64,000 nucleotides of DNA from contig JBOGEN010000069.1 in NCBI GenBank assembly GCA_050743265.1, forward strand, positions 1,987-65,986, in the 5' to 3' direction. Made by a program: the position numbers and the translations under genes. Below are positions 32,572 to 49,788 of this stretch, piece by piece. The stretch is from Actinomycetes bacterium. GTDB lineage: Bacteria > Actinomycetota > Actinomycetes > JBOGEN01. Positions within the stretch are counted from its first letter, which is position 1. Each line of letters begins with the position of its first letter. Below the pieces are notes generated by a model. That model had not been told where the DNA came from. It saw only the letters and a program-made list of their open reading frames with translations, and searched no databases.

Positions 32572-33942
32572 TCAGTGACCTGCCGCTCCGGCCCCGCCGC
32601 GTAACCCGGCGGGGCCGACGGGCAGGAACCGGCCCTCCCTGGGCCCGAGCGGCGTGCCGCGCTCGGCGACGAGCGCGCCCCGCAGGTAGGTGCGCACGAC
32701 CTCGCCGACGACCTCGCGCCCGTGGAAGGGCGTCCAGCCGGCCTTGGAGAGCACGTCCTCGTCGCGGAGGGTGCGCCGGGCCGCCGGGTCGACGAGGACG
32801 AGGTCCGCGTCACTCCCCGGCGCCAGCCGGCCCTTGCGCGGCCACAGCCCGTACGTCCTCGCCGGCGTCTCGCTGTACACGCGGGCGACGTCCTCGTACG
32901 CGAGGTGCCCGCGTGCGGCGGCGTCCAGGAGCAGGGCCATCGTGCTGTCGAGGCCCGGCAGCCCGAAGTGCACGTTCCAGATGTCCCCGGCCCGCTTCTG
33001 CGCGAGCGTCGACGGCGCGTGGTCGGTCGCGATGTGGGTGAGGTGGCCCTCGCGCAGCAGTCGCCACATCTGGGCCTCGTCGTCGTCGGTACGCGCCCGC
33101 GCGGGCGGGGTGAACTTGCGCAGCGCGCCGTGCTCGTGCACGTCCGCCTCGCGGAGCAGGAAGTACTGCGGGCAGCTCTCGGCAGCGAGCTGAGCCCCCC
33201 TGGCCCGCTCCTGCGCGAGGTACGCGGCGACCTCGGGGTGGCTCACGTGCGCCACGGTCGCCCGGGCGCCTGTACGCCGCACGAGCAGGGCGGCGACCGC
33301 GGCAGCGACGACCTCGGCGTCCCGGTTCCGCCACTCGGGGACGATGCCTCCGTCGACGCGCTCCTCCGCACGCAGCAGGCGCTCCGCGGACGCGGTGAGC
33401 GACTCGTCCTCGCAGTGCATGAGCGTGACCGCACCCGTCATCGCCGCCGCCTCGAGGTGGGCCTTGAGTTCCGCGGGGTCGTGCCCGGGAACCCCGTGCG
33501 TCGTACAGGTGAAGAGCTTGAAGAAGGCGACCCCGGCCTCCCACAGCTCGGGTACGGCGTCGGCATGACCCGGCCAGGCATGGGCGGCCAGGCCGTAGTC
33601 GACGTGGGACCGGCCGTCCAGGTAGTCGCGCTTGGCCTGCAGGTCCGCGACCGTACGGACGGGCTGCCCGTGCGCGTGCTCGACGAGCGAGGTCACCCCG
33701 GCGGCGGCCGCCGCCCCCGTGCCGGTCGGGAAGTCCTCCCGCTCGGTGCTCCCCGGGTCCATGAGGTGGACGTGCGTGTCGACGCCTCCCGGGAGGACGA
33801 GCAGTCCCGAGGCGTCCACGGTCTCGTCCGCCGAGGGACGGTCGGAGCCGACGTAGGAGATGAGGCCATCGGACACGCCCACGTGGGCGCGTCGACGCCC
33901 CTGCGCGGTGACGACGGTACCGCCGGCGAGGAGAAGGTCCAC
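32572..33942 (-). CDS. Cyclic amidohydrolase (allantoinase/dihydropyrimidinase/hydantoinase family)
   Basis: Metal-binding motifs 'PGGVDTHVHL' and 'HATDHAP' are present. GTG start ('VDLLLAGGTVVT') 1 nt after the upstream cyclase stop; the first ~129 residues of the ORF are S/T/R-rich and spurious. Confidence 0.85.
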   Translation of the reverse strand: MDLLLAGGTVVTAQGRRRAHVGVSDGLISYVGSDRPSADETVDASGLLVLPGGVDTHVHLMDPGSTEREDFPTGTGAAAAAGVTSLVEHAHGQPVRTVADLQAKRDYLDGRSHVDYGLAAHAWPGHADAVPELWEAGVAFFKLFTCTTHGVPGHDPAELKAHLEAAAMTGAVTLMHCEDESLTASAERLLRAEERVDGGIVPEWRNRDAEVVAAAVAALLVRRTGARATVAHVSHPEVAAYLAQERARGAQLAAESCPQYFLLREADVHEHGALRKFTPPARARTDDDEAQMWRLLREGHLTHIATDHAPSTLAQKRAGDIWNVHFGLPGLDSTMALLLDAAARGHLAYEDVARVYSETPARTYGLWPRKGRLAPGSDADLVLVDPAARRTLRDEDVLSKAGWTPFHGREVVGEVVRTYLRGALVAERGTPLGPREGRFLPVGPAGLRGGAGAAGH

Positions 33943-33943
33943 G

Positions 33944-34627
33944 TCAGGCCGACGCGGTGTCTCCGGCGACGCCGAAGAAGCGCGCGGGCGCGCCCTCGCA
34001 GTCGCCGATCTTGTAGAAGGGGGCGTAGAACTCGAAGTGCTCCCGGCCCAGCCCTGCGACGTTCGTCGCCTGCTCGAGCAAAGGGATGCCGGCGCCGAGC
34101 AGGATCCGGTGGCAGACGAAGTCCTCGGAGGTGAAGTCCGGCAGCCGCGCGCAGTACTCCTCGAAGAAGTCGAACACCACCGCCTTGGGGTTCCGGGCGA
34201 CGAGCCACTCGGCCGCGTCCGGAGTGAGGTAGGGCGACTGGGTGTAGTAGCGCGGGAAGTCGCCCCAGGCCTCGTCCGACCACCCCGTGTGCAGCACAGC
34301 GATGTCACCCTCGCGGAGCCCGAGGTCACCCTTCTCGAGTACGCCGACGTCGACGGGTTGCTCGGGCTCCACGCTCGTGCAGTCGAGGACGGTGGCCGCC
34401 CCGATGACGCGGTCGAGCGGGATCTCGGCCGTCGTGCCGCCTCCGGCGTAGCAGTGCAGCGGGGCGTCGATGTGGCTCCCGGTGTGCAGGCTCTGCGTGA
34501 CGACGCTCACCTGCCAGAAGCCTGGGCCGCGGTGATGACGCTCGAGCTCGACCCGAAGGTCGGTCGAGGGCGGGCTCTTCGTCTCGACGTCGACGGGTAC
34601 GGACATGTCCACGATCCGGTTGCTCAT
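33944..34627 (-). CDS. Cyclase family protein (kynurenine formamidase-like)
   Basis: 'HTGSHIDAPLH' and 'VLHTGWSD' are conserved cyclase motifs. Confidence 0.85.
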   Translation of the reverse strand: MSNRIVDMSVPVDVETKSPPSTDLRVELERHHRGPGFWQVSVVTQSLHTGSHIDAPLHCYAGGGTTAEIPLDRVIGAATVLDCTSVEPEQPVDVGVLEKGDLGLREGDIAVLHTGWSDEAWGDFPRYYTQSPYLTPDAAEWLVARNPKAVVFDFFEEYCARLPDFTSEDFVCHRILLGAGIPLLEQATNVAGLGREHFEFYAPFYKIGDCEGAPARFFGVAGDTASA

Positions 34628-35335
34628 TCACACTCCCAGGTGGTGCCGCTTCGCGTCGGGGTCGGCTTCGAGGTCAGAGGGGGTGCCGTCCCAGTCGATC
34701 CGCCCGTCCTCCCCGAGGACGACGACGCGGTCGGCGAGACGCAGCGCGAGCCCCAGGTTCTGCTCGACGAGGAGCACGGTCAGGTCGCCGCCCTTGAGCA
34801 GATCCAGCCGGTCCCGGATCTGGCCCAGGACGCGGGGGGCCAGGCCCTCGGAGGGCTCGTCCATGAGCAGCAGCGTGGGGTTCGTCATGAGGGCGCGTCC
34901 CAGCGCGAGCATCTGCTGCTCGCCCCCCGAGAGGTGCCGGGCCCTGCTGGTACGACGTTCGGCGAGACGAGGGAACAGGTCGTACACCTCGGCGAGCCCC
35001 CAGCCGCTGCCGTTCGTCGACGGCCGCGCGGTCGTGGTGAGGTTCTCCTCGACGGTCAGGCTGCCGAACACGCGGCGCCCCTGCGGCACCAGGCCGACGC
35101 CACTCCTCGCGATCCGGTGGCTGGGCATCCCGCACAGCTCCTGCCCGTGCCACGTGATGCTGCCCCGGCGTACGTCCGGGGGTGACGTGCCCGCGATCGA
35201 GCGGACGAGGGTCGTCTTCCCCATGCCGTTGCGGCCGAGCAGCACCACGAACTCACCCGTCTGCACGGTGAGGTCGACCCCGCGCAGCACGTGCGCGGTG
35301 TCGTAGTAGCTGTGGACGCCGGAGACGGTGAGCAT
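34628..35335 (-). CDS. livF: Branched-chain amino acid-type ABC transporter ATP-binding protein (LivF-like)
   Basis: 'GRNGMGKTTL' and 'LSGGEQQMLALGRAL'; ATGA overlap with livG. Confidence 0.9.
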   Translation of the reverse strand: MLTVSGVHSYYDTAHVLRGVDLTVQTGEFVVLLGRNGMGKTTLVRSIAGTSPPDVRRGSITWHGQELCGMPSHRIARSGVGLVPQGRRVFGSLTVEENLTTTARPSTNGSGWGLAEVYDLFPRLAERRTSRARHLSGGEQQMLALGRALMTNPTLLLMDEPSEGLAPRVLGQIRDRLDLLKGGDLTVLLVEQNLGLALRLADRVVVLGEDGRIDWDGTPSDLEADPDAKRHHLGV

Positions 35336-36090
35336 CAGTCCGTCCTCAGGTAGACGGACTGGACGGCCTCGTCGGCACGGATCTCGTCGGGGGTGCCCTG
35401 GGCGATCATCGTGCCGTCGTCCAGGCACACGACGCGCTCGGTGAGGTCGAGCGCGAGGTTCATGTCGTGCTCGATGAGCACGAGCGTGAGATCGTCCGGG
35501 AGCCGCTCCACCAGGGTCCGCATGGTCTTGCGCTCGGAGCTGGCGAGCCCGGCGGCCGGCTCGTCGAGGAGGAGCAGCCGGGGGCGTCCCGCCAGCGCGA
35601 GCGCGAGCTCGAGCTGCCGCTGCTCCCCGTGCGAGAGCTGCCGGACCTCGTCGTACCGGCGCCTGACCAGGCCCACCTGGTCGAGCGCGTCACCGACCCG
35701 CTCGCCGACGTCGCCCCGCATCCGCAGGAGGGACCACGAGCGGAAGCGCGCCCCGGTGCAGCCGTACGCCGCGACGGCGACGTTCTCCTCCACCGTGAGC
35801 CGCGGGAACAGCGTGGTCACCTGGTACGTCCTACCGATCCCGCGCCGGGCCCGCCGGTACGACGGGGCACGCGTCACGTCTCCGCCGAACAGGCTGACCC
35901 GTCCGGACGTGGGGTAGACCTCGCCCGAGATGGCGCGGAACAGCGTCGTCTTGCCCGCACCGTTGGGGCCGATCACGGCCCAGCGCTCGCCACGGCCGAC
36001 GGACAGGCTGACGTGGTCCACGGCGTAGATGCCGCCGAAGTGGACGCAGACGTCCTCCAGCCGCAACGCCGCCGTGGCCCCGTCTCCCAT
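35335..36090 (-). CDS. livG: Branched-chain amino acid-type ABC transporter ATP-binding protein (LivG-like)
   Basis: 'GPNGAGKTTLF' and 'LSHGEQRQLELALAL'. Confidence 0.9.
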   Translation of the reverse strand: MGDGATAALRLEDVCVHFGGIYAVDHVSLSVGRGERWAVIGPNGAGKTTLFRAISGEVYPTSGRVSLFGGDVTRAPSYRRARRGIGRTYQVTTLFPRLTVEENVAVAAYGCTGARFRSWSLLRMRGDVGERVGDALDQVGLVRRRYDEVRQLSHGEQRQLELALALAGRPRLLLLDEPAAGLASSERKTMRTLVERLPDDLTLVLIEHDMNLALDLTERVVCLDDGTMIAQGTPDEIRADEAVQSVYLRTD

Positions 36091-36102
36091 CGTCTCGTCC
36101 CC

Positions 36103-37395
36103 CTAGCCGGCGTCGGTGCCCTGGTAGCCACGGCTGTACACGGGCTGCTCGAGGAACTCCTTCGGGTCGTACGTCCAGAACTGGCTGACCTTCGGGAAGG
36201 TCTTGGTCGGGACGTTCACGAGCCCGCCGTCCCGCTTCACGACCTTGCGCACGTACACGTTGGACACCGGGCTGTCGTACTCGTCGAGCCGCATCGGCCC
36301 CATCGCCGAGTCCTCGAGCGACACGCCGCGTACCGCCTCGAGGAAGGCCTTGCGGTTCGAAAGGTCACCGTCGACGTCCTCGATCGCCTGGGTCAGCCAC
36401 TGGGCTGCGGTGTACATGGCGCCGGAGTAGTACGAGGGCACCTTGCCGTACCTGTCCTGGTAGGACGCGGCGAAGTCCTGCGTCGCGGGGCTCTCACGCC
36501 CCTCGGCGAAGTGCCCCACCGAGACCAGTCCCTCGGCCTCGTCGCCCATCCCGCGGAGGAGCGACTGGTCCAGCGTCGTCTCCCCGCCGAGGAGCGGCAG
36601 CGAGCCCTTGAGCCCGAAGTCGCTCCAGGCCTTGACGAACTTGGGTCCCTCGGCGCCGACGGTCTCGACGAAGGCGGCGTCCGCGTTCGTGTCCTTGATC
36701 TGCGCCATGTACGTACTGAAGTCCTGCGTGCCGAGGGGGTGCCACAGCTGCTTGACGACCGTGCCCCCCGCGTCGGTGAACGTGTTGACGAAGCCTCCGC
36801 AGGTCTCGTGGCCGAACGCGTAGTCGGTGCACTGGGTGACGATGCGCCGGTACCCCTGGTCGTACGCCCATTGCCCGAAGGGGTGCGTGGTCTGGCTGCT
36901 CGTCCAGCCCGCCACCCGGATGACACCGGGAAGTCGCTCGCGCTGCGTGAGGTCGTCGGCCGAGACCACCGGAAGGAAGATCGGCACGTCCTGCCGGCTC
37001 ATCTCCTCGGCGACGGCGAGCCCGACGTTCGAGAGCAGCGGCCCGACGATGAAGTCGACGCCCTCGCTCTCGACGAGGCGCTGGGCCTTGTTGAGGCCGG
37101 TGGCCGGGTCACCCGCCGTGTCCTCGTCGACGATCTCGACCGTCTTGCCGGCGATCTTCATGCCGTGCTCTTTGAAGTAGAGGTTCCAGCCGTTGAGCAT
37201 GTCCTGGCCGCTGGCCGCCACGGCGCCCGTCTGCGGGGCGAGCACGCCGATCTTGATGGTGTCCGAGTCACCGGCACGCTGCGGGTGGGCCTCCTCCCCG
37301 CCGGGAGCCGAGCAGGCGGCTGCCAGCACGAGGCCGGTCCCCGCGGCGAGAGCCGCCCGCCACCCGTACCACGTTCCTCGTCCTCGCCTGGTCAT
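36103..37395 (-). CDS. ABC transporter substrate-binding lipoprotein (type-1 periplasmic binding protein, Liv/amide-binding family)
   Basis: Lipobox 'LAAAC' and 'IKIGVLAPQTGAVAASG'. Confidence 0.9.
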   Translation of the reverse strand: MTRRGRGTWYGWRAALAAGTGLVLAAACSAPGGEEAHPQRAGDSDTIKIGVLAPQTGAVAASGQDMLNGWNLYFKEHGMKIAGKTVEIVDEDTAGDPATGLNKAQRLVESEGVDFIVGPLLSNVGLAVAEEMSRQDVPIFLPVVSADDLTQRERLPGVIRVAGWTSSQTTHPFGQWAYDQGYRRIVTQCTDYAFGHETCGGFVNTFTDAGGTVVKQLWHPLGTQDFSTYMAQIKDTNADAAFVETVGAEGPKFVKAWSDFGLKGSLPLLGGETTLDQSLLRGMGDEAEGLVSVGHFAEGRESPATQDFAASYQDRYGKVPSYYSGAMYTAAQWLTQAIEDVDGDLSNRKAFLEAVRGVSLEDSAMGPMRLDEYDSPVSNVYVRKVVKRDGGLVNVPTKTFPKVSQFWTYDPKEFLEQPVYSRGYQGTDAG

Positions 37396-37398
37396 CTC

Positions 37399-38439
37399 CT
37401 ACCTCCTGGGGTCGAGGGCCGCGGCACGGTCCGCGGGTTCGGGTTCGGGTTCGGTGGAGCCGACGGGTTCGGGGGTGCCTCCCCCGCCGAGCCGGCGTTC
37501 TCGGCGTCCGAGCCAGCGCCACCAGAGCCGGGACACGCCACCGACGAAGCCGCTCTGGGCGAAGAGGATCGTGCCGATGAAGACGAGCCCCAGCACGGTC
37601 GGCCAGCGCTCCACGTAGACGCTGAGGATGTTCTCGCTCATCACGATCACGAACGCGCCGATGACCGGGCCGATGAGCGTCCCCACGCCCCCGACGATCA
37701 CCATGAGCACGCCGTTGCCCGACACGAGGAACTCGGCGTCCGAGGGGCTGATGAACTCGTTCTGGTACACGAACAGGACGCCGGCGACCGAGGCGAACAG
37801 GCCGGAGAGCATGAACGCGTAGAACTTGTGCAGCGTCGTGCTGTACCCCAGCATTCGGACGCGCTCCTCGCTGTCCCGCATGGCCCGCAGGCCGTACCCG
37901 AACGGCGAGCGGACGACGACCCACAGCAGGCCGCCGGAGAGCAGCAGGAGGGCGAAGCAGAGGTAGTAGTACTTCCAGTACGCCTCGACCGCGGGCGGTC
38001 GGACGATGCCGCGCAGGCCGTTCTCCGCTCCGGTGACCTTGTACATCCGGATGGACAGGCCCCAGACGATCATCCCCATCGCCAGCGTGGCCATGAGGAA
38101 GTAGACGCGGGACGTCCGCATCGCGGTCAGCGCGAACACCGCGGTCGTGCCGAGTCCGACCACGAGGCCCATCCCGATCTGCGCGGCGTAGCCGCCTCCG
38201 TGCGTCGCGACGTACCCGGTGCCGTACGCGGCACTGGCGAGGATGCCCGCGTGTCCGAGGCTGACCATGCCGCCGTAGCCGGCGAGGAGGTCGATGCTCA
38301 TCGCGAAGATCGCGAAGATCAGAGCGAGGGAGACGATGCTCACCAGGTACGCGTCGATCACGTACGGCAGCGCGACGCCCGCGACGACTGCCCCGGCGAG
38401 CAGGCCGAGCTTGACCCGGGCGGTGGGCGAGGACGTCAC
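37399..38439 (-). CDS. livM: Branched-chain amino acid-type ABC permease (LivM-like)
   Basis: Multi-transmembrane; 'SLGHAGILASAAYGTGY'. Confidence 0.9.
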   Translation of the reverse strand: MTSSPTARVKLGLLAGAVVAGVALPYVIDAYLVSIVSLALIFAIFAMSIDLLAGYGGMVSLGHAGILASAAYGTGYVATHGGGYAAQIGMGLVVGLGTTAVFALTAMRTSRVYFLMATLAMGMIVWGLSIRMYKVTGAENGLRGIVRPPAVEAYWKYYYLCFALLLLSGGLLWVVVRSPFGYGLRAMRDSEERVRMLGYSTTLHKFYAFMLSGLFASVAGVLFVYQNEFISPSDAEFLVSGNGVLMVIVGGVGTLIGPVIGAFVIVMSENILSVYVERWPTVLGLVFIGTILFAQSGFVGGVSRLWWRWLGRRERRLGGGGTPEPVGSTEPEPEPADRAAALDPRR

Positions 38440-39299
38440 ACCGGCCTCCCCAGCAGGCCGTGCGGCCGGAGCACGAGGACGATCGCCATGGGGGCGAAGA
38501 GCGTGAAGAAGCTCAGGTCGGGGACGAGCGCGCGCCCGAACGCGTCGAGCAGCCCCACGAGGATGCTGCCGACCGCCGCACCGGGCAGGCTGCCCAGGCC
38601 CCCGATGATGACGACGACGAGGGCGAACAGCAGGATCTCCACGTCCGCACCCGGGACGAGGGAGAGGAACGCGCCCCCGACGACGCCGGACAGACCCGCG
38701 AGCAGGGCGCCAAGCAGGAACACCCCGGTGAAGACCTTCGTGATGTCGATGCCGAGCGCGGCGACCATCTCCCTGTCGTCGACGCCCGCCCGGACGATGG
38801 CGCCGACCCGCGTCCGGCTCTGGAGGTACCAGAGCGCCGCGCCGACGGCGATGCCGAGCAGGGCGACGACGATCCGGAAGCGCGGGTAGCTCACCACACC
38901 GAGGTCGACCGTGCCCGAGACGTACGCCGGCGTGGTCATCTGGATCGGGTCGCCACCCCAGATGGCCAGCGAGAGGTCACCCAGGACGAACGCCACTCCG
39001 ATCGTGAGGAGCACCTCGGGCAGCTCCTGACCCCGGATCCTGCGCAGCAGGAGTCGTTCGACGCCGGCCCCCAGGACCGCGACCGCGATACCACCGGCGA
39101 GGACCGCCAGCCAGAAGCTCCCGGTCGTCACCAGGACGGTGGAGCCGACGTACCCGCCCACGAGGTAGAAGGCCCCGTGACCGAGGTTCACGATGCGCAT
39201 GAGCCCGAAGACGAGCGTGAACCCGGCGGACAGGAGGAACAGCAGACCCCCGAAGCTCAACCCGTTCAGGATCTGGGTCACGACGGAGTCGGGACTCAC
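38436..39299 (-). CDS. livH: Branched-chain amino acid-type ABC permease (LivH-like)
   Basis: 'ILNGLSFGGLLFLLSAGFTLVFGLMRIVNLGHGAFYLVG' is the LivH consensus; the start is approximate (GTG near 39299). Confidence 0.85.
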   Translation of the reverse strand: MSPDSVVTQILNGLSFGGLLFLLSAGFTLVFGLMRIVNLGHGAFYLVGGYVGSTVLVTTGSFWLAVLAGGIAVAVLGAGVERLLLRRIRGQELPEVLLTIGVAFVLGDLSLAIWGGDPIQMTTPAYVSGTVDLGVVSYPRFRIVVALLGIAVGAALWYLQSRTRVGAIVRAGVDDREMVAALGIDITKVFTGVFLLGALLAGLSGVVGGAFLSLVPGADVEILLFALVVVIIGGLGSLPGAAVGSILVGLLDAFGRALVPDLSFFTLFAPMAIVLVLRPHGLLGRPV

Positions 39300-39464
39300 G
39301 GCCGACCCCCTCCGCCTCGGCCTCTCATGAACCTCGCGGAGGTCACCGGCCTCGCCCACCTCACCGACCTCACCGGCGCGCTGCAGCCCGCGTCGTCACG
39401 GCCCGGGAGGTCCGGGCGCGGCAGCAGGTCGACGGCACGCATCGGTTCGTCTCCAGAGAGGGGC

Positions 39465-41290: not shown

Positions 41291-41348
41291 AATTTACGTG
41301 ATCGGTGGTTGAGATGACAACGAACGAGAACGTGCGACCAGGAGGGAC

Positions 41349-42422: not shown

Positions 42423-42468
42423 GATCGCGACCCTGGGTCGAGTCGACCCCCCGGAGTGAGGAGCAGCG

Positions 42469-43353
42469 ATGGGACAGACGGTTGGCGTCGTCGGCCTCGG
42501 CATCATGGGGTCGGCCTTCGCGACGAACCTGACCGCGGCCGGCTTCGACGTCCTCGGCCACGACGTGGATGCCGCGCGGTACGGCCCGCTGGAAGAGCAC
42601 GGAGTCGAGGCGGTGCCGTCACTCGCGGACCTGGGTCGTCGCGCGTCCGTCGTCATCACCTCCCTGCCGTCCGCCGCGGCCCTGGACGACGTCGTCACCG
42701 GACTCGAAGAGGTCGACGGGCACGGCCGCGTGCTCGCCGAGGCCGGGACGCTGCCGGTGGCGACGAAGGAGTCCGCAGCCCGACGCCTGGGAGCCCGCGG
42801 CTTCACGGTGCTCGACACGCCGATCAGCGGTACCGGCGCGCAGGCGGTGACGCGCGACCTCAGCGTGTACGCGAGCGGCGACCGGAACGCCGTCGACGCG
42901 TGCGCGCCCGTGTTCGCCGGCTTCGCGCGGTCATGCCACTACGTCGGCGACTTCGGCATGGGGATGACGGTCAAGCTCGTCGCCAACCTGCTCGTCGCCG
43001 TGCACAACACCGCCGCGGCCGAGGCGCTCCTGCTCGGGCAACGGGCCGGGGTGGACCCGCAGACCCTGCTCGACGTGCTCACCGACGGCGCGGGGACGTC
43101 GCGCATGCTCGAGGTGCGCGGTCCGCTCATGCTCGCGGGCGCGTACGAGCCGGCGACCGCGAGCGTCGAGATGTTCAAGAAGGACCTCGGGCTGATCTCG
43201 TCCCTCGCCGCGGCGCACGACAGCCCCGTCCCGCTGCTGGCCGCGACGGCGCAGCTGTACGCCGCGGCGATGGCCCAGGGCCGGCACTCCCAGGACGCGG
43301 CCGCGGTGATGGCGGTGCTCGAGCAGATGGCAGGCAGCCCGCCCGGCGGTTGA
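42469..43353 (+). CDS. NAD(P)-dependent oxidoreductase (3-hydroxyisobutyrate dehydrogenase/tartronate-semialdehyde reductase family)
   Basis: 'VGVVGLGIMGSAFATNL' with a C-terminal 6-phosphogluconate-dehydrogenase-like helix domain. Confidence 0.85.
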   Translation: MGQTVGVVGLGIMGSAFATNLTAAGFDVLGHDVDAARYGPLEEHGVEAVPSLADLGRRASVVITSLPSAAALDDVVTGLEEVDGHGRVLAEAGTLPVATKESAARRLGARGFTVLDTPISGTGAQAVTRDLSVYASGDRNAVDACAPVFAGFARSCHYVGDFGMGMTVKLVANLLVAVHNTAAAEALLLGQRAGVDPQTLLDVLTDGAGTSRMLEVRGPLMLAGAYEPATASVEMFKKDLGLISSLAAAHDSPVPLLAATAQLYAAAMAQGRHSQDAAAVMAVLEQMAGSPPGG

Positions 43354-43388: not shown

Positions 43389-44492
43389 ATGCAGCATTCT
43401 GGGAACGCCCGGGTGGCGCACCAGGAGGGTGCTGAGGAGACCCAGCCGGCGGACGCCGCTTCGACCCTCTCGGGGTTCCGCGTCCACGCGTGGGGCGGCC
43501 CGCTCGTCCGCGAGGAGTGGCCGCGCGCGGAACCGGGTCCGGGTGAGCTGCGCGTCGACGTCGAGGCCTGCGGCGTCGGACGCACGGTGCTCAACTGCAT
43601 CGCCGGGGACCTCGCGGACGGCCGGGCGAGGCTGCCCCGTGTTCCAGGACACGAGCTGGTCGGCCGGGTCGCACGCGTCGGGCCCGGAGTGGACCCGACC
43701 CGGATCGGCGAGCGCGTCGTCGCGTACTTCTACCGGTTCTGCGGTCGGTGCCACGAGTGCGCGGACGGGCGGCAGTCGCGCTGTGCCGCACTCGACGGGT
43801 TCGTCGGCGTGCACAGCGACGGCGGGTACGCGCCGAGCGCAGTCCTCCCCGCCCGCAACGCCGTGCCTGTCCCGGACGGGCTCGACCCCGTCGCCGCGAC
43901 CGTGGTGCCGGACGCGGTGGCCACGCCCGTCCACGTGTGCGAGCAGCGTGCCCGTGTCACTGCCGGGGACCGCGTCGTCGTCATCGGGGCCGGCGGCGGC
44001 GTCGGTGTCCACCTGGTGCAGGTGGCGCTGCTCCACGGGGCCCGCGTCGTCGGGCTGGACGTCGGGGACGAGAAGCTGGCGGCCGTCGAACGCCTCGGCG
44101 CAGTCGCCCGGGACTCGACGCGCTTCGACGCCGTCGATCCCGCGGCGCTCTGGCCGGACGGTCCGCCTCACGTCGTCGTCGACCTGCTCGGCTCGGACGA
44201 CAGCCTCCCGTGGTCGGCCGCGGCGCTGGGCACGGGCGGGCGGCTCGTCGTCCTCACGACCTTCCCCGGGCAGGCGCTCGCCGTCGAGCCCCGTGAGCTC
44301 GTCTTCCGCGAGGCGTCGCTGGTGGGGTCGCGGTACGCCTCGGTCGCGGAGGTCACCACCGCGGCCCGGCTGGTGGCGTCCGGGCGGGTGACCCCGGTGG
44401 TCGGCGAGGTGGTCGGCCCCGACGGGATCGCCGGGCTGCACGAGGGGCTGCGCGACGGCCTGCTGGTCGGGCGAGGGGCGCTGGTGTGGTGA
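43389..44492 (+). CDS. Zinc-binding alcohol dehydrogenase family protein
   Basis: 'GHELVGRV' and 'CGRCHECADGRQSRC'; start approximate. The first ~310 residues of the 42456 ORF are R-rich and spurious. Confidence 0.8.
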   Translation: MQHSGNARVAHQEGAEETQPADAASTLSGFRVHAWGGPLVREEWPRAEPGPGELRVDVEACGVGRTVLNCIAGDLADGRARLPRVPGHELVGRVARVGPGVDPTRIGERVVAYFYRFCGRCHECADGRQSRCAALDGFVGVHSDGGYAPSAVLPARNAVPVPDGLDPVAATVVPDAVATPVHVCEQRARVTAGDRVVVIGAGGGVGVHLVQVALLHGARVVGLDVGDEKLAAVERLGAVARDSTRFDAVDPAALWPDGPPHVVVDLLGSDDSLPWSAAALGTGGRLVVLTTFPGQALAVEPRELVFREASLVGSRYASVAEVTTAARLVASGRVTPVVGEVVGPDGIAGLHEGLRDGLLVGRGALVW

Positions 44493-46147
44493 GCAGCCGA
44501 GCGGAGGCTCCCGACCCTCCCCGCCTGCCGGACGAGGTGGACGGCGTCTTCGTCGGCGGCGGGCACAACGCGCTCGTGGCGGCGGCCTACCTCGCCCGAT
44601 GCGGGCTCTCGGTGCTGGTCCTCGAGCAGGGGGACCGGCTCGGCGGCGGGGTCACGACGGCGGAGGTCACGCTGCCCGCGTACCGGCACAACCTGCACGC
44701 GTTCTTCGTCCGGTGGACGCCGGAGGACCCGGTCTGGCACGACCTCGGCCTCGGCGCCACCGGCGTCCGTACGCTCCGGCCGGACGTCCAGAACGCGATC
44801 CCGTTCGCGGACGGGACCGACGCGCTGCTCACGTACCGCGACCTGCCGCGGAGCCTGGAGGCGATCGCGCGGCTCTCCAGCGCGGACGCCGAGGCGTACG
44901 CCAAGGCGCACGCCGACTACCGCGAGCTGACCCAGCGCATCATCGCGCCCTTGCGGTGCACGCCACCCCTGCCACGCGAGGAGGAGGAGCACCTGCTCGG
45001 ACGCAGCGCCCTGGGCCGTCGCTTCCTCGACCTCGCCGGCCGCTCGGCGCTCGAGCTGGTCACCGACGGCTTCAGCAGCGAGCCGCTGCGCGCGCTCGTC
45101 GCGTTCAACGTGGCCGTCCGGGGATACCTGCCGGTCATCGACGTCCCCGGAACCGGCTACTGCACCGTGATGGCCCTGCCCAACTCGCACGAGGGCCGCA
45201 TGGTCGTCGGCGGCAGCGCGGAGATGGTGCGCGCCATCACCGCGTCGCTGTCCGCGGCGGGTGGACAGGCCGCCGTCCGCTCGCCGGTCGCGTCCATCGA
45301 CGTGGAGAACGGACGCGCGGTCGGCGTGACCACGGCGCAGGGTCGCCGCGTCCGGGCCATGCGCTTCGTCGCCAGCGGGGTTCCCGCACCGCAGACCCTG
45401 CTCGACCTCGTCGGCCGCCACCACCTCGACGGGTCCCTCGTCCGGGCGATGCGTGACTACCGCTGGCTCGAGGAGGGCCTCTTCGGCGTCCACCTCGCCC
45501 TCGACCGGCGTCCCCGGTTCGCCGCCGAGGGGCGCCACCCCGAGATGCCGTACGCCCTCAACCTCGCCCTCGGGTACGAGTCCGTCGACGACCTGCTGGC
45601 CGACCAGCTCGCCATCAGGGACAGGCGGCTGAGCGACACGGTCGCCCTGCACGCGAGCATCCCCACGGCGAACGACCCGACGCAGGCACCGCCCGGCCGG
45701 CACACCGCCTTCGGCTGGCAGTTCGTCGCCTCGTACGCACCGGACGGCGCCGACCGCATCTGGGACGACGCGGCCAGCCGACGCCAGGCCGACGCGGCGG
45801 TGGCCACGTTCGCGCGGTACGCCCCCGGCGTCGCGGGGACGGCCCAGGCAGCCGTCTCCCACTCGCCGACCGACACGCAACGGATGCTGCCCTCGATGCC
45901 GCGAGGCGACCGCCACCACGGCAGCTACCACCCGGACAACTGGGGGGCAGGCCGCCCGCACCCGTCCGTGTCCGGCTACCGCACGCCGGTCGACGGGCTC
46001 TACCTGTGCGGCGCGACGCAGCACCCGGGCGGCAGCTTCACCGGTCATCCCGGCTACAACGCCGCGGGCGTGATCGCGGACGACCTCGGTCTTGACGTCT
46101 GGTGGGACCGCCCCGACGCGCGGGCGGTACTCCTGGACCTGGAATGA
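44486..46147 (+). CDS. FAD/NAD(P)-dependent oxidoreductase (phytoene desaturase/amine-oxidase-like)
   Basis: 'VFVGGGHNALVAAAYLARCGLSVLVLEQGDRLGG' is the dinucleotide-binding motif. Confidence 0.85.
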   Translation: MVSSRAEAPDPPRLPDEVDGVFVGGGHNALVAAAYLARCGLSVLVLEQGDRLGGGVTTAEVTLPAYRHNLHAFFVRWTPEDPVWHDLGLGATGVRTLRPDVQNAIPFADGTDALLTYRDLPRSLEAIARLSSADAEAYAKAHADYRELTQRIIAPLRCTPPLPREEEEHLLGRSALGRRFLDLAGRSALELVTDGFSSEPLRALVAFNVAVRGYLPVIDVPGTGYCTVMALPNSHEGRMVVGGSAEMVRAITASLSAAGGQAAVRSPVASIDVENGRAVGVTTAQGRRVRAMRFVASGVPAPQTLLDLVGRHHLDGSLVRAMRDYRWLEEGLFGVHLALDRRPRFAAEGRHPEMPYALNLALGYESVDDLLADQLAIRDRRLSDTVALHASIPTANDPTQAPPGRHTAFGWQFVASYAPDGADRIWDDAASRRQADAAVATFARYAPGVAGTAQAAVSHSPTDTQRMLPSMPRGDRHHGSYHPDNWGAGRPHPSVSGYRTPVDGLYLCGATQHPGGSFTGHPGYNAAGVIADDLGLDVWWDRPDARAVLLDLE

Positions 46148-46172: not shown

Positions 46173-46550
46173 ATGGGCAAGGCCTTCCACACCGCACACC
46201 GCTGGGACCTCGACTGGCAGGACGACAGCGACGTCCTCAGCCTGGGCCACGGCGTCCAGGTGAAGGTGCTCTACCAGGACGTGGAGACCGAGCACACCGA
46301 CATGTTCATCAAGTTCCCGCCCGGCTACACCGAGCCGCGGCACAACCACGACAGCAGCCACTCGGTGCTCGTCGTGGAGGGGCTCCAGATCGCCGAGGGC
46401 GAGCCGATGCGGCCCGGCGACTACGTCTGGGCGAGCGGTGAGGAGGCGCACGGTCCCTTCGAGTACCCCGAGGGCTGCGTGGTGTTCGCGAGCTTCCGCG
46501 GGGCCTCCGCCCTGCACCGGTACCCGGGCTCCCCGGCGGGGGAGATCTGA
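46173..46550 (+). CDS. Cupin domain protein
   Basis: GGAGGA RBS; 'PPGYTEPRHNHDSSHSVLVVEG'. Confidence 0.7.
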   Translation: MGKAFHTAHRWDLDWQDDSDVLSLGHGVQVKVLYQDVETEHTDMFIKFPPGYTEPRHNHDSSHSVLVVEGLQIAEGEPMRPGDYVWASGEEAHGPFEYPEGCVVFASFRGASALHRYPGSPAGEI

Positions 46551-46594
46551 CCGCCCACGACCCGAGCAGCGCAGCGCGGTGGCCCCGCGTCGCT

Positions 46595-47806
46595 GTGGTC
46601 GGCGGGTCCATCGGCGGACTCACGGCCGCCCTCGTCCTCCGTGACCTCGGGTGCGACGTCGTCGTCCACGAGCGCTCGCCGTCGGCGCCCGAGGGGCGCG
46701 GGGTCGGGATCGTCCTGCACGACATGACGGTGCGCTACCTCGCCGAAGACGACGGGCCGACGGAAGACGGCGACCCGACAGAGCACGGCGCCCCGAGAGG
46801 CCGCCTCGACCTCGAGGCCGTGAGCACGTCCGCCCGCTACCTGCGCTACCTCGACCGCGACGGGCACGTGGTGTACGAGGGCGAGCGGAACTACCACTTC
46901 ACCGCGTACGGCACCCTCTACCGGGCTCTCCTGGCGCGACTCGACCCGGACCGGTACCACCTGGGGCACGAGGTCGTGGAGTTCGCGCAGCAGGGCGAGG
47001 AGGTCACGTACCGGCTCGCCGACGGCAGCGTCGGGACGTGCGACCTCCTGGTGTGTGCCGACGGTGTGTCCTCGCCGTCGAGGCGGCGCCTGCACCCGGA
47101 CGTCCGGCCCCGGTACGCCGGCTACGTCGGGTGGCGCGGGGTCCTCGAGGAGCGTGCCCTGTCCCGCGCGACCACCGAGGCGCTGCACGACGCGATCACG
47201 TACGCCGTCGCACCCCACAGCCACATCCTCGTCTACCCCATCCCGCACTACAACGGCTCGCGCGAGCCGGGACGCCGGCTCGTCAACGTCGTCTGGTACC
47301 GCAACGTCCGGACGGGCCAGGAGCTCGACAACCTGCTCACCGACACACGCGGGCAGCGCCGGGAGTCGTCGGTCCCGCCCGGCCTCGTCCGGGGCGAGGC
47401 CGTCGACGAGCTGCGCACCGCCGCCGCGCGGGAGTTCCCCCGCCCGATCGCGGAGGTCGTCGCGAAGGCCGAGGAGCCCTTCATCCAGGTGATCGTGGAC
47501 ATCGCGGTCCCGCGCATGGCCGTCGGGCGGGTCTGCCTCATCGGTGACGCGGCGTTCGCGGTACGCCCGCACGCCGCCGCCGCGACGGCGAAGGCTGCCG
47601 CCGACGGCTGGGCTCTTGCCGAGTCCCTCGAGAAGAGCGACGGGGACGTGCCCACCGCGCTGGGCGCGTGGGAGCCCCGCCAGCGCGCGCTCGGACACCG
47701 CCTGCTCGAGCGCACGCGCGAGATGGGCGACCGCTCGCAGGTCGCCGGGACGTGGGAGGCCGGGCACGCGTCGCTCGACTTCGGCCTGGACGGACCCGGC
47801 CGGTGA
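46595..47806 (+). CDS. FAD-dependent monooxygenase (aromatic hydroxylase family)
   Basis: The N-terminus 'VVGGSIGGLTAAL' (possibly begins slightly upstream) and 'LIGDAAFAVRPHAAAATAKAAADG'. Confidence 0.85.
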   Translation: MVGGSIGGLTAALVLRDLGCDVVVHERSPSAPEGRGVGIVLHDMTVRYLAEDDGPTEDGDPTEHGAPRGRLDLEAVSTSARYLRYLDRDGHVVYEGERNYHFTAYGTLYRALLARLDPDRYHLGHEVVEFAQQGEEVTYRLADGSVGTCDLLVCADGVSSPSRRRLHPDVRPRYAGYVGWRGVLEERALSRATTEALHDAITYAVAPHSHILVYPIPHYNGSREPGRRLVNVVWYRNVRTGQELDNLLTDTRGQRRESSVPPGLVRGEAVDELRTAAAREFPRPIAEVVAKAEEPFIQVIVDIAVPRMAVGRVCLIGDAAFAVRPHAAAATAKAAADGWALAESLEKSDGDVPTALGAWEPRQRALGHRLLERTREMGDRSQVAGTWEAGHASLDFGLDGPGR

Positions 47807-47858: not shown

Positions 47859-48638
47859 GTGCGGCTCGAGGGCAGGACAGCAGTGGTCACCGGGGCTGGG
47901 CGCGGGATCGGCCAGCAGGTGGCCCTCGTGCTGGGCCGGGCCGGCGCCCACGTGGTGCTCGCCTCCCGCTCCCCCGACGCCCTCGTCCAGACGCGTGCCC
48001 GGATCGAGGCCGACGGCGGCACGGCGCTCGTCGTGCCGACCGACATCACCCGGCAGAGCGACGTCGCCACGCTGGCCGAGCGCGTCGAGGAGACGTACGG
48101 CGCCGCGGACGTGCTCGTGTGCAACAGCGGGGTGGGTGGGCCTTCCGCACCGCTGTGGGAGGTCGACCCCGCCGAGTGGGAGTCCACCCTGGCGGTCAAC
48201 GTCACGGGCACGTTCCTGTGCTGCCGGGCGATCCTCCCGGCCATGCTGGGCCGCCGGTCCGGGAGCGTCGTGGTGATCGGGTCGATGACCGGCAAGCGCC
48301 CGCTCATGAACCGCTCGCCGTACGCGACGAGCAAGACCGCGCTGATCGGGCTCGTCCGCACGCTCGCCCACGAGACCGGCCCGTACGGCGTACGGGTGAA
48401 CCTCGTCTCCCCCGGCCCGGTGGAGGGCGAGCGCATCGAGTGGGTGATCGGCCGGCAGGCCGAGGCGCAGGGCATCAGCCCGGAGGAGGCTCGGGAGCAG
48501 TTCACGTCCTCGTCCCCGCTGCGTCGGCTGGTGGCGGCCTCCGACGTGGCGGACGCGGTCCTCTACCTCGCGTCCGACCAGGCGGGCTCCGTGACCGGGG
48601 AGGACCTCAACGTGTCGGCCGGCACCGTCATGCACTGA
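47859..48638 (+). CDS. SDR family oxidoreductase
   Basis: 'TAVVTGAGRGIG' and 'YATSKTAL'. Confidence 0.9.
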   Translation: MRLEGRTAVVTGAGRGIGQQVALVLGRAGAHVVLASRSPDALVQTRARIEADGGTALVVPTDITRQSDVATLAERVEETYGAADVLVCNSGVGGPSAPLWEVDPAEWESTLAVNVTGTFLCCRAILPAMLGRRSGSVVVIGSMTGKRPLMNRSPYATSKTALIGLVRTLAHETGPYGVRVNLVSPGPVEGERIEWVIGRQAEAQGISPEEAREQFTSSSPLRRLVAASDVADAVLYLASDQAGSVTGEDLNVSAGTVMH

Positions 48639-48653
48639 CCAGGAGGCGACGAA

Positions 48654-49346
48654 TTGAGCAGGCTCATCGACCTGTCGCAGGACATCTACCAGGGGATGCA
48701 GGTTTACCCCGGGCACCTCAAGACGGTCGTCTTCGACCACGCGAGCCACGACGAGACGGCGCCACGGTTCGAGAGCGAGTTCTCGTTCCAGACCAAGGGG
48801 ATCATGCTCAACGACAACGGCCCCACGCACGTCGACTCGTTCAGCCATCTGGACCCGAGCCCGGACGCCCAGACGATCGACCAGATGTCGCTCGACCTGT
48901 TCTATGGCCCGGCGGTGTGCCTCGACGTCTCCGAGCACCCGCCGCGGACGGACATCACCGGTGAGCACCTGGACGCGGCGGTCGCCAAGTCCGGGCAGGA
49001 CGTACGCCCCGGCGACATCGTGCTGTTCTACACCGCGACGTACGACCGCCACCACGGCACGGCCGCGTACCTCACCGACTTCGCCGGGCTCGGGGAGTCC
49101 GGCAGCCAGTGGATCGTCGACAAGGGCATCAAGACCTTCGGCGTCGACAGCCCCACACCCGACAACCCGATCAGCAAGACCTACCCCTGCCACATGATGT
49201 GCCGCGTCCACCACAAGACCCACTACGAGAACCTGGCCCACCTCGACCAGGTGGTGAACACGCGCTTCACGTTCGTCGGGCTACCGCTCAAGACCGTCGG
49301 GGCGCACGGCGGCCCCACGCGCGCCGCCGCCCTCGTGGACGCCTGA
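48654..49346 (+). CDS. Cyclase family protein (kynurenine formamidase-like)
   Basis: AGGAGG RBS then TTG; 'NGPTHVDSFSH' and 'DIVLFYTATYD'. Confidence 0.85.
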   Translation: MSRLIDLSQDIYQGMQVYPGHLKTVVFDHASHDETAPRFESEFSFQTKGIMLNDNGPTHVDSFSHLDPSPDAQTIDQMSLDLFYGPAVCLDVSEHPPRTDITGEHLDAAVAKSGQDVRPGDIVLFYTATYDRHHGTAAYLTDFAGLGESGSQWIVDKGIKTFGVDSPTPDNPISKTYPCHMMCRVHHKTHYENLAHLDQVVNTRFTFVGLPLKTVGAHGGPTRAAALVDA

Positions 49347-49350
49347 CCGG

Positions 49351-49788
49351 CTACTCCGCGGGCGCTGCCGTGCGGGCGGGACGCTCGGCCACCTCGTCGA
49401 GCTCGGGCAGGTTCACGACGATCGGGTCCGGGTCGGACCGGACGACCACCCAGGACGTGGGCTCGGACGCGGACGCGTTGATCTCCTGATGGATGATCTC
49501 GGCGGGGATGAACACGAAGTCGCCCACGTCCGCCTCGGTGACCTGCTCGAGACGGGGGCCCCACCGGAACCGGGCGCGGCCCTCGAGCACGTACAGGATC
49601 GTCTCCTGGTCCCCGTGATGGTGGGCCCCGGTCGCCGCGCCCGGCTCCACCACGGACAGGAAGCCGCTGAGCACCCGGGCGTCCGGGTTACGGGAGTCGA
49701 AGGCGACCTCACGTCGCAGGCCGGGGGTCTGGGGGGTGTCGCCCGAGCGCTCGCCGGCGGACACGACCCGTACGCGGGGGTCACTCAT
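49351..49788 (-). CDS. Cupin domain protein
   Basis: 'GAATGAHHHGDQETILYVLEGRARF'. Confidence 0.8.
   Translation of the reverse strand: MSDPRVRVVSAGERSGDTPQTPGLRREVAFDSRNPDARVLSGFLSVVEPGAATGAHHHGDQETILYVLEGRARFRWGPRLEQVTEADVGDFVFIPAEIIHQEINASASEPTSWVVVRSDPDPIVVNLPELDEVAERPARTAAPAE

Follow-up and report, generated by a model that had tools for sequence, protein, structure and literature searches.

Synteny and enzyme families point to a catabolic gene cluster with its own importer and regulator in a 64,000-nucleotide stretch of actinomycete DNA (contig JBOGEN010000069.1 of assembly GCA_050743265.1, positions 1,987 to 65,986 of the forward strand), hereafter called the window. As judged by synteny, the cluster is one co-inherited functional catabolic unit with a Liv-type ABC importer and a GntR/FCD regulator. 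The unit may import and degrade an oxygenated N-heteroaromatic carboxylate, most likely of the hydroxypyridine- or pyridone-carboxylate type, a reading to which a probability of about 0.5 is given. An earlier note on this DNA had expected an N-heterocyclic or amino-aromatic substrate. The N-heterocyclic substrate is supported as the best reading by the DhpH-family monooxygenase of the cluster and by the molybdenum (Mo) hydroxylases and amidases found near homologues of its genes. All of the gene families named in that note are present at about the coordinates given there.

Genes were called by third-position G+C (GC3) and then assigned with Pfam. The window has 72% G+C and no break in base composition between cluster and flanks, so plain lists of open reading frames (ORFs) are swamped by shadow ORFs. 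In low-GC betaproteobacterial loci, GC3 gene calling was done with relative thresholds. Equivalog tests used NCBIfam models with their cut-offs, and solved relatives were sought by PDB sequence search. The features of the unit and its right-hand extension are as follows.

32572-33942, minus strand: cyclic amidohydrolase (Amidohydro_1; hydantoinase/allantoinase/dihydroorotase superfamily), 456 aa, GTG start (Pfam)
33944-34627, minus strand: cyclase A, a PF04199 metal hydrolase with a complete HxGxHxDxPxH motif (Pfam)
34628-35335, minus strand: LivF ATPase (Pfam)
35335-36090, minus strand: LivG ATPase (Pfam)
36103-37395, minus strand: Peripla_BP_6 binding protein (Pfam)
37399-38439, minus strand: LivM-type permease (Pfam)
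38436-39359, minus strand: LivH-type permease (Pfam)
39465-40469, minus strand: zinc-dependent alcohol/polyol dehydrogenase 1 (ZnADH1), with catalytic Cys/His and structural CxxCxxC...C site (Pfam)
40579-41283, minus strand: GntR/FCD (FadR-subfamily) regulator, GTG at 41283 (Pfam)
41272-41298: candidate operator, a 13-1-13 imperfect inverted repeat (sequence and conservation)
41349-42359, plus strand: Amidohydro_2 metal-dependent decarboxylase, ACMSD clade (HxH; IDIHSH) (Pfam)
42469-43353, plus strand: 3-hydroxyisobutyrate-dehydrogenase-family (HIBADH) NAD(P) oxidoreductase (Pfam)
43389 (or 43413)-44492, plus strand: zinc-dependent alcohol dehydrogenase 2 (ZnADH2) (frame plot, translation, NCBIfam MDR hits)
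44486-46147, plus strand: CrtO/phytoene-desaturase/amine-oxidase-like FAD oxidoreductase (Pfam)
46173-46550, plus strand: ChrR-type cupin (Cupin_7) (Pfam)
46547-47806, plus strand: class A FAD monooxygenase, DhpH homologue (NF005566)
47859-48638, plus strand: short-chain dehydrogenase/reductase (SDR) (Pfam)
48654-49346, plus strand: cyclase B, a short-type PF04199 metal hydrolase with a variant motif lacking the first His (Pfam)
49351-49788, minus strand: metal-binding cupin (Cupin_2), convergent with cyclase B (Pfam)
49781-50275, minus strand: BCP/PrxQ-type peroxiredoxin with in-frame TGA at 50143-50141 (read-through alignment)
50275-51135, minus strand: ECF T component (Pfam, NCBIfam)
51068-53113, minus strand: fused ECF A-A' ATPase (Pfam, NCBIfam)
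52959-53663, minus strand: 234-aa polytopic membrane protein, probable S component (hydropathy; no Pfam or NCBIfam match)
54424-55944, minus strand: aldehyde dehydrogenase, probable outlying member (Pfam; no NCBIfam equivalog)
55976-56722, minus strand: second GntR/FCD regulator, probable outlying member (Pfam; no NCBIfam equivalog)

The synteny search suggested in the earlier note found the gene order again in one contig and the same families reshuffled in others. In L085, a Logan contig, livF-livG-binding protein-livM-livH-ZnADH1-GntR lie divergently from Amidohydro_2-HIBADH-ZnADH2-CrtO-like-cupin_7, at 74-94% protein identity. In L081, a JGI soil contig, ZnADH1-GntR lie divergently from Amidohydro_2-HIBADH, an M24 hydrolase gene with a PPDK_N/PEP-utiliser gene, and monooxygenase-SDR-cyclase B; cupin_2-peroxiredoxin-ECF T are convergent, and nitrile hydratase (alpha, beta) genes stand where the Liv genes stand in the window. 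ZnADH1 has no NCBIfam equivalog match, and its orthologues (73-74%) occupy the same position in L081 and L085, which also carry orthologues of the GntR regulator (73-77%). Orthologues of the HIBADH-type enzyme occur in L081, L085, L014 and L082. ZnADH2 is paired with the CrtO-like gene in L085 and also in L149, L157 and L158, where ZnADH2-CrtO-like-amidohydrolase, in some cases with cyclase A, lie beside a Liv operon; in L149 the cyclase A orthologue (44%) adjoins the amidohydrolase. The M24 (creatinase/aminopeptidase P-like) and PPDK_N/PEP-utiliser genes replace ZnADH2-CrtO-cupin_7 in variants of the cluster (L081 1-1097, L014 4540-7461, L149 6064-7281).

The same families associate in a cultured organism and across large numbers of metagenome loci. 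In Geodermatophilus sp. YIM 151500 (L082), an amidohydrolase orthologue (76%) lies a few kb from monooxygenase (57%)-cyclase-SDR (62%) and a HIBADH gene; this locus carries a PKC-type cyclase (33% to the pAO1 cyclase). The SDR also adjoins the monooxygenase homologue in L081 (77%). Orthologues of the amidohydrolase at 57-80% identity were found in 80 metagenome loci, and at least one other cluster family is present in 30 of the 35 such loci of at least 6 kb. Their neighbours include asparaginase (19 loci), Amidohydro_2 (15), GntR/FCD (15), aldehyde dehydrogenase (14), MFS (13), isochorismatase (8) and alpha/beta-hydrolase (7). Homologues of the cluster families number in the hundreds in soil metagenomes, at 55-85% identity. 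A genome scan seeded on the decarboxylase found the whole cluster in no genome; the best match was 75% identical, with few shared neighbours.

The FAD monooxygenase gives a clue to the substrate. It passes the NF005566 model (PRK07236; PF22607) with 434.7 bits against a cut-off of 333 and matches 2,6-dihydroxypyridine hydroxylase (2VOU) at 1.8e-69 across residues 1-399, compared with 3e-16 for salicylate hydroxylase. As classified from its sequence, the monooxygenase is a homologue of 2,6-dihydroxypyridine 3-hydroxylase, with 38% identity to DhpH of pAO1. A homologue at 48% lies beside an Amidohydro_2 gene and an OYE reductase gene on a Rhodococcus qingshengii plasmid.

The decarboxylase is closest to true ACMSDs (human ACMSD, 7e-62) and has no NCBIfam equivalog. 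Its metal ligands and catalytic His (equivalents of H6, H8, H174, H224 and D291) are invariant in the query and 120 homologues, and the equivalent of Arg235/Arg239 of ACMSD is invariant in the family. The equivalent of Arg47 (human) or Arg51 (Pseudomonas) is Ala in the window enzyme and varies among the 121 family members (A 58, K 20, G 14, S 7, R 7); R47A and R51A mutant PDB chains confirm the placement of this column. Binding of ACMS requires both Arg47/Arg51 and Arg235/Arg239 of the neighbouring subunit. Because one of these two substrate arginines is missing, assignment of the window enzyme as a bona fide ACMSD (EC 4.1.1.45) was rejected, although the metal site and Arg235 are kept. The ACMSD-like hydrolase of the earlier note belongs to the ACMSD clade, with HxH and Arg235, but lacks the Arg47/Arg51 equivalent.

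The importer and its association with the decarboxylase suggest that the imported compound is an aromatic acid. The Liv/HAAT-type genes (34628-39359, minus strand) have the order livH, livM, binding protein, livG, livF. The nearest solved structures of the binding protein are 4ZPJ, 4EY3, 4EVS, 4F06 and 4EVQ, with E values of 1e-37 to 4e-54; it scores poorly against urea and branched-chain amino acid models (UrtA model 1e-20). The last four of these structures (E 1e-37 to 1e-53) are of Rhodopseudomonas palustris proteins, which we take to be binders of benzoate derivatives, as Michalska et al. reportedly described in 2012. In many Betaproteobacteria, a Liv operon of the same unusual order (H, M, binding protein, G, F) is followed directly by a homologue of the decarboxylase. 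Since this pairing is conserved across phyla, the decarboxylase likely acts on or near the imported acid. The earlier note had listed the amidohydrolase as the ring-opening enzyme; against an amidohydrolase acting first, the conserved pairing and the presumed aromatic-acid ligands of the binding-protein relatives point to an imported aromatic carboxylate, with the amidohydrolase acting late.

Genes near the homologues in other organisms also point to an N-heteroaromatic ring. Two-subunit Mo-hydroxylase genes follow the decarboxylase homologue in L052 and L024; the molybdopterin-binding large subunit is present in both, and the 2Fe-2S small subunit was confirmed in L052. In L068, amidase genes lie on both sides of the decarboxylase homologue. 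The closest plasmid homologue of cyclase B (38%) is encoded on a Haloarcula plasmid beside a xanthine-dehydrogenase-family hydroxylase, and the plasmid also carries Amidohydro_2, M24, SDR and DhpH-like genes. Xanthine-dehydrogenase-family genes lie beside the peroxiredoxin orthologue in four Geodermatophilus genomes. Hydroxylases of this family typically hydroxylate N-heteroaromatic rings next to the nitrogen. Amidases, isochorismatase-type hydrolases and asparaginases are recurrent neighbours of the cluster homologues.

The hydrolases that may open the ring score below the cut-offs of the equivalog models. The amidohydrolase sits between the allantoinase, hydantoinase and dihydroorotase models and below every NCBIfam equivalog cut-off: its best match is allantoinase TIGR03178 (294 bits, cut-off 358), followed by NF004839 (274 bits, cut-off 631), a further model (258 against 452) and hydantoinase TIGR02033 (257 bits, cut-off 393). 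It matches allantoinase (3e-58) and D-hydantoinase (8e-56) in the PDB and holds all of the binuclear metal-site motifs by sequence reading (DTHVH, FFKLF, MHCED, AHVSH, ATDHAP). Cyclases A and B score 46.8 and 61.9 bits against the arylformamidase model TIGR03035, which has a cut-off of 223. Both cyclases are distant from the solved structures of kynurenine formamidase and isatin hydrolase, which cyclase B matches only at E about 5e-7. In partial alignments, cyclase A is 29% and cyclase B 22% identical to the pAO1 cyclase, and assignment of cyclase B as a pAO1-type cyclase was rejected at this identity. The oxidoreductases are similarly distant from named enzymes. The HIBADH-type protein best matches L-threonate dehydrogenase (190 bits, cut-off 350), and the CrtO-like protein scores 176 bits against the CrtO model (cut-off 1000) and has no close solved structure in the PDB search. 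Both zinc-dependent dehydrogenases carry catalytic and structural zinc sites by sequence reading and are classified as alcohol/polyol dehydrogenases, not as ene-reductases.

We infer each step of the following route from the enzyme families and the gene neighbourhoods. The Liv-type system would import an oxygenated N-heteroaromatic carboxylate, and the ACMSD-clade Amidohydro_2 enzyme would remove the ring carboxyl group non-oxidatively. The DhpH homologue would then hydroxylate the product to a tri-oxygenated, autoxidizable ring. This ring may be opened directly at the C-N bond by a cyclase-family metal hydrolase, as has been suggested for trihydroxypyridine during the degradation of nicotine and 2-hydroxypyridine. 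Alternatively, the dehydrogenases and the FAD oxidoreductase may convert it to a cyclic imide or lactam that is opened by the cyclic amidohydrolase, after which cyclase A, translationally coupled to the amidohydrolase, would remove the remaining amide nitrogen, a neighbourhood in which an asparaginase occurs elsewhere. In this second branch, a bacterium would use a route analogous to fungal nicotinate degradation by the hxn pathway. The C5/C4 product would be passed to central metabolism by the HIBADH-type, SDR and aldehyde dehydrogenases, and the selenocysteine peroxiredoxin and the cupin of the convergent operon would handle peroxide or quinonoid side products. By binding the conserved inverted repeat that covers the -10 regions, the GntR/FCD protein would keep both divergent operons repressed until it is bound by a pathway metabolite.

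Several observations weigh against a hydroxypyridine- or pyridone-type carboxylate as the substrate. No Mo-hydroxylase is present among the annotated window genes, so the substrate may arrive hydroxylated or be hydroxylated by an enzyme encoded elsewhere; no omega-amidase or other carbon-nitrogen hydrolase is present in the window. Only the monooxygenase passes the cut-off of its subfamily model, the other substrate assignments being made by analogy, and neither cyclase belongs to the subfamily of the pAO1 cyclase. Enzymes of the ACMSD clade are known chiefly for using a ring-cleavage product as substrate rather than an aromatic acid, and, as in ACMSD pathways, aldehyde dehydrogenase genes often lie nearby. 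The ligand specificity of the relatives of the binding protein is our assumption, a literature search by PDB codes having returned nothing useful.

An alternative, meta-cleavage of an amino- or hydroxy-benzoate of the 3-hydroxyanthranilate or 2,3-dihydroxybenzoate type, appears unlikely. The monooxygenase would form an ortho-substituted catechol or aminophenol acid, the conserved cupin (cupin_2) would cleave its ring, the ACMSD-clade enzyme would decarboxylate the carboxymuconate semialdehyde, and the aldehyde and HIBADH-type dehydrogenases would process the semialdehyde. The similarity of the decarboxylase to true ACMSDs, with HxH, catalytic His and Arg235, agrees with this scheme, as do the orthologous aldehyde dehydrogenase genes directly downstream of decarboxylase homologues (L001), the high conservation of cupin_2 and the presumed benzoate-derivative ligands of the binding-protein relatives. 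However, the window enzyme has Ala at the Arg47/Arg51 position, which varies within the family, no similarity of the cupin to 3-HAO-type dioxygenases could be detected, and the monooxygenase is far nearer to DhpH (2e-69) than to salicylate hydroxylase. Moreover, the betaproteobacterial decarboxylase homologue sits with an importer and a Mo-hydroxylase, without a dioxygenase, and the cyclic amidohydrolase, two cyclases and many amidase neighbours would be left unexplained. The kynurenine- or anthranilate-like substrate offered as an example in the earlier note is not supported, given the arylformamidase scores of both cyclases and the missing Arg47/Arg51 equivalent; TDO, kynureninase and 3-HAO-like genes were not found among the annotated window genes.

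A cyclic ureide or imide (hydantoin, allantoin or another purine-derived compound, or a dihydropyrimidine- or orotate-like compound) is quite unlikely to be the primary substrate, opened first by the amidohydrolase and then processed as a linear product by the other enzymes. The best models of the amidohydrolase are indeed allantoinase, dihydroorotase and hydantoinase, the gene is co-transcribed with the importer as judged from the junctions, PucR-type regulators and xanthine-dehydrogenase genes occur in related loci, and the HIBADH family includes tartronate semialdehyde reductase. Yet all of the equivalog scores fall below cut-off, which together with the lack of carbamoylase and allantoate-processing enzymes argues against hydantoin, allantoin or dihydropyrimidine as such, which the earlier note had considered. 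Carbamoylase, allantoate amidohydrolase, ureidoglycolate enzyme, dihydropyrimidine dehydrogenase and NCS1 permease were not found among the annotated window genes. The binding protein is nearest to presumed aromatic-acid binders, not to urea or amide binders, and the aromatic hydroxylase and aromatic-type decarboxylase would have no role after ring opening. Finally, it is very unlikely that unrelated catabolic modules or housekeeping paralogues are merely adjacent and share no pathway. Modules do recombine, as the M24 and PPDK_N genes in place of ZnADH2-CrtO-cupin7 and the nitrile hydratase in place of the Liv genes illustrate in L081, and most genome loci share just one or two families with the window. 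Against this stand the full order from livF to cupin_7 in L085, the tight packing of genes with overlapping stops and starts, and the single divergent promoter with a conserved candidate operator. The repeated re-association of the same families, in many arrangements and in different phyla, also contradicts independent housekeeping paralogy, which the earlier note had named as a finding that would refute it.

The proposed pyridine-type route resembles several known systems in part, and family and literature searches found no characterized pathway with this gene set, in agreement with the earlier note; in the literature on pyridine-type catabolism with such enzymes, only papers on nicotine, hxn and pic matched in part. 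The cyclase of Paenarthrobacter nicotinovorans pAO1 was proposed, from proteomics, to hydrolyse 2,3,6-trihydroxypyridine to alpha-ketoglutaramate (PMC6214936), and the same step has been summarized for Rhodococcus and Arthrobacter, with a reductive, imidase-based alternative in Aspergillus (PMC9304392). The pAO1 nicotine genes (kdh - cyclase - dhpH - omega-amidase, with dhpH overlapping the cyclase gene) and the Rhodococcus hpo genes share with the window a DhpH-family monooxygenase co-transcribed with a PF04199 cyclase, the proposed hydrolytic release of the ring nitrogen and an actinobacterial host. Unlike them, the window has a monooxygenase only 38% identical to DhpH and a cyclase B of another subfamily (22%), lacks an omega-amidase, a Mo-hydroxylase and nicotine genes, and adds a decarboxylase, an ABC importer, a cyclic amidohydrolase and four dehydrogenases. 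The PKC/HpoH-type cyclase (about 310 aa) next to dhpH, together with the omega-amidase, which identify the lower pathway of nicotine and 2-hydroxypyridine degradation, were not found in the window.

In the Aspergillus nidulans hxn route, nicotinate is hydroxylated to a trihydroxypyridine, the ring is partly reduced, an SDR carries out an oxidation, an imidase opens a cyclic imide and the product is deamidated (PMC9304392). The window likewise has an FAD hydroxylase, several reductases, an SDR, a cyclic amidohydrolase and amide hydrolases, but the proteins are non-homologous (HxnM is a polysaccharide-deacetylase-type imidase and HxnT an OYE reductase), so the likeness is one of functional analogy only. 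In the pic system, the Amidohydro_2 non-oxidative decarboxylase PicC acts on a hydroxylated pyridine carboxylate, 3,6-dihydroxypicolinate, downstream of a Mo-dehydrogenase. PicC is a member of the gamma-resorcylate decarboxylase clade with EEH as its N-terminal motif (10.1101/457895), whereas the window enzyme has HxH; identification of the window decarboxylase as PicC was rejected on these grounds, and PicA, PicB and PicD-G are absent from the window. The ACMSD or nba-type kynurenine branch supplies the closest solved homologues of the decarboxylase, with metal ligands, catalytic His and Arg235 kept, but the window differs in lacking the Arg47/Arg51 equivalent, 3-HAO, kynureninase and TDO, and its cyclases are not kynurenine formamidases. 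With the hydantoinase, allantoinase and dihydropyrimidinase systems the window shares the binuclear-metal cyclic amidohydrolase fold and all ligand motifs. It differs from them in scores below cut-off, in the absence of companion enzymes and in its recurrent neighbours (asparaginase, Amidohydro_2, aldehyde dehydrogenase, MFS); of the hyu companions, N-carbamoyl-amino-acid amidohydrolase, racemase and NCS1 permease were not found among the annotated window genes. Tentatively, the cluster may represent an undescribed route for N-heteroaromatic acids in soil Actinobacteria, with related modules in Betaproteobacteria and haloarchaea. Such a route would combine a decarboxylase acting on the intact acid, a DhpH-like hydroxylase that yields a trihydroxy ring and, in parallel to the fungal hxn pathway, imide opening by a new hydantoinase-like subfamily; it would also have a selenocysteine peroxiredoxin of its own and an ECF transporter whose S component is new.

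The region between the divergent operons contains a candidate operator for the GntR regulator. The palindrome ACACATTGTGT (ACACAtTGTGT) reported in the earlier note is present at 41280-41290. By itself it is not significant, with 0.71 window matches expected by chance; its weight comes from position and conservation. The surrounding 25-bp block, ATGACACATTGTGTAATTTACGTGA, recurs unchanged in L085 and with one change at its centre in L081, while the flanks diverge. The candidate operator (41272-41298) also contains GTAAtTTAC (41289-41297), a GT-N-AC-type GntR half-site pattern. The sole sigma-70-like promoter match in 32-51 kb has its -10 element, TAAATT, at 41296-41291, inside the 25-bp block. 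As the conserved block overlaps this promoter-like site, the palindrome is a good candidate GntR operator. The GntR mRNA is probably leaderless, starting at about its GTG, and a mirrored TAATTT could serve as the -10 element of the plus-strand operon. A divergent promoter under autoregulation, in which the repressor binds over both -10 elements, would be expected to have this layout.

The convergent operon includes a gene that appears truncated in its annotation. A 113-aa "AhpC-like" ORF starts in the middle of the Pfam model; it represents only the 3' portion of a BCP-type peroxiredoxin gene 164 codons long. Upstream, in the same frame, lie a conserved N-terminal third, MPEVGDRAPDFTLRR...FYVFDFGGY, and a single TGA (50143-50141) followed by STELSQLGQ. 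The 164-aa read-through product, with Cys for the stop, matches Aeropyrum BCP (2CX3, residues 2-156, 2e-28), and the TGA aligns exactly with the peroxidatic Cys of this protein. The frame across one stop codon at this position is kept in 13 orthologues; the codon is TGA in nine contigs (the window and eight other actinobacterial contigs) and TAG in all four Geodermatophilus genomes. A SECIS-like hairpin follows 9-10 nt after the recoded codon, at 50131-50114 in the window. The hairpin, (C)UGUCCC-AGUU-GGGRCA(G), has a 6-7-bp stem and an AGUU loop. All 12 of the 12 sequences keep it without variation at synonymous sites, among them those of a TTG leucine codon that these genomes seldom use. Its spacing and G/U-containing loop fit bacterial SECIS elements. 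The stem changes only from U-A to U-G and shows no double compensatory changes, so covariation support is absent. No selenocysteine (Sec) tRNA lies within the 64-kb window.

The distribution of the two stop codons bears on the nature of the recoding. Members of the Geodermatophilaceae have been reported to possess a tRNA-Sec whose anticodon is CUA, and for Blastococcus saxobsidens an AhpC selenoprotein that uses TAG as its Sec codon has been described (PMC5330540). TAG is best understood as Sec recoding because the one genus that has it here belongs to the family reported to read UAG as Sec. The possibility of a truly split gene in Geodermatophilus was rejected, since the TAG is conserved in four genomes of this family. 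The TGA/TAG split constitutes an independent natural test of selenocysteine recoding. Like the window protein, the Blastococcus selenoprotein belongs to the AhpC/TSA family and has a recoded stop, UAG in Geodermatophilaceae, followed by a bacterial SECIS (PMC5330540); unlike it, the window gene uses TGA, lies in a catabolic cluster and follows an ECF gene. In the databases, 118 of the best 120 homologues cover just the C-terminal part of the protein, with lengths of 90-133 aa and in most cases of 101-113 aa. A single close homologue, P0242 (JGI, 156 aa), is full-length; it carries Trp where Sec is predicted, probably because the annotation pipeline used another genetic code to translate a TGA. 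It is concluded that the window gene is a predicted selenocysteine peroxiredoxin that is systematically mis-annotated, a finding of practical value for annotation. Because the gene sits in catabolic operons, its product may remove peroxide arising from flavoenzymes or from autoxidizing polyhydroxy intermediates.

The genes around the peroxiredoxin extend the unit to the right. Cupin_2 is the most conserved protein of the set (79-85% in L014, L081 and L126, compared with 48-84% for the other proteins there); it has no close solved relative and no 3-HAO match in the PDB search. Its gene overlaps the stop of the peroxiredoxin gene by 8 nt, and the peroxiredoxin ATG (50275) overlaps the stop of the ECF T component in a TGATG junction. 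The ECF module also lies near the peroxiredoxin in L173 (9779-12975; S 82%, AA' 69%, T 73%), and the T component lies upstream of it in L081 (11726-12202; 88%). The 234-aa polytopic protein is probably a new ECF S component; no riboswitch was detected upstream of the ECF genes. Orthologues of the aldehyde dehydrogenase (64-69%) and of the second GntR regulator (53-54%) adjoin decarboxylase or amidohydrolase homologues in four loci (L001, L110, L123, L155), and for this reason the functional unit probably reaches 56.7 kb. The right-hand boundary at 49788 in the earlier note thus falls short: the unit continues with the peroxiredoxin, the ECF transporter and probably the aldehyde dehydrogenase and second GntR to 56722. 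The cupin at 49351-49788, placed there at the end of the plus-strand genes, is on the minus strand in this separate convergent operon. Cyclase B (end 49346) and cupin_2 (49351) converge 4 nt apart, without terminator space; it follows that either their transcripts overlap or one bidirectional signal within the coding sequence serves both.

Junction inspection showed that both main operons are tightly packed, with stops and starts that overlap or abut. The GTG 1 nt after a TGA described earlier was borne out at cyclase A/amidohydrolase (TGA-C-GTG), whereas the ATGA overlaps are actually GTGA (livH/livM and ZnADH2/CrtO-like) or TGATG (livG/livF); the livF/cyclase A junction is TGAATG. ZnADH2 had been read in the wrong frame: ORF 43429-44391 has no Pfam match and was rejected, the frame plot and NCBIfam MDR hits favouring 43389/43413-44492. 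A 585-aa maximal ORF for the amidohydrolase was likewise discarded, homology starting only at residue 130; the gene encodes 456 aa from GTG 33942. The Cupin_7 start was inferred from a 125-aa orthologue in L085 (94% identity) and a GGAGG ribosome-binding site. The monooxygenase starts at CTG 46547, as in NCBI protein P0001, overlapping the cupin_7 stop; the upstream start is needed because a Rossmann beta-strand is otherwise lost. The term "island", in the sense of horizontal transfer, is better replaced by cluster, as the composition is like that of the flanks and no transposase or integrase is present among the annotated window genes.

Other features were noted within and beside the cluster. 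The final 15 nt of the decarboxylase gene, including the stop, are duplicated about 60 nt downstream, and a 19-nt tandem repeat of 4.4 copies (consensus CTCGACCCCGACCCTCGAT, 42348-42433, plus strand) begins in its last codons and fills the space up to the HIBADH gene. An 87-nt tRNA-Arg(GCG) called by ARAGORN at 37196-37282 (plus strand), antisense inside the binding-protein gene, is most likely a false positive. On the left flank, CbtB/CbtA cobalt transporter genes (30642-31735) and an unclassified membrane protein gene are unrelated to the cluster. Just upstream of CbtB/CbtA is a sub-threshold AdoCbl riboswitch match (30622-30720, plus strand; 36.7 bits against a gathering threshold of 50, E 2e-4), and no Rfam match reaches the gathering threshold anywhere in the window. 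A cobC-like phosphatase gene lies at 29930-30589. Further left, two GGDEF-EAL proteins (14928-19406) precede a separate peptide-utilization cluster (19403-29416) with an Opp/Dpp-type ABC transporter, M19 dipeptidase, M24 prolidase-like enzyme, alpha/beta-hydrolase and tandem AsnC regulator. Near the end of the window, a PEP-mutase-family gene (62087-63031, minus strand), of possible phosphonate or isocitrate-lyase-like metabolism, adjoins an SDR-like gene (63056-63910).

Soil is rich in pyridine-type compounds, including nicotinate, picolinate, dipicolinate, quinolinate, alkaloids and agrochemical residues, and their catabolism in Actinobacteria is only partly mapped. The cluster contains three enzyme subfamilies without a characterized member, those of the decarboxylase, the cyclic amidohydrolase and the short cyclase. 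Added interest comes from these orphan subfamilies, from an ECF module whose probable S component is unclassified and from the selenoprotein predicted within the cluster. As the cluster family is common in soil metagenomes, identification of the substrate would annotate many genes at once.

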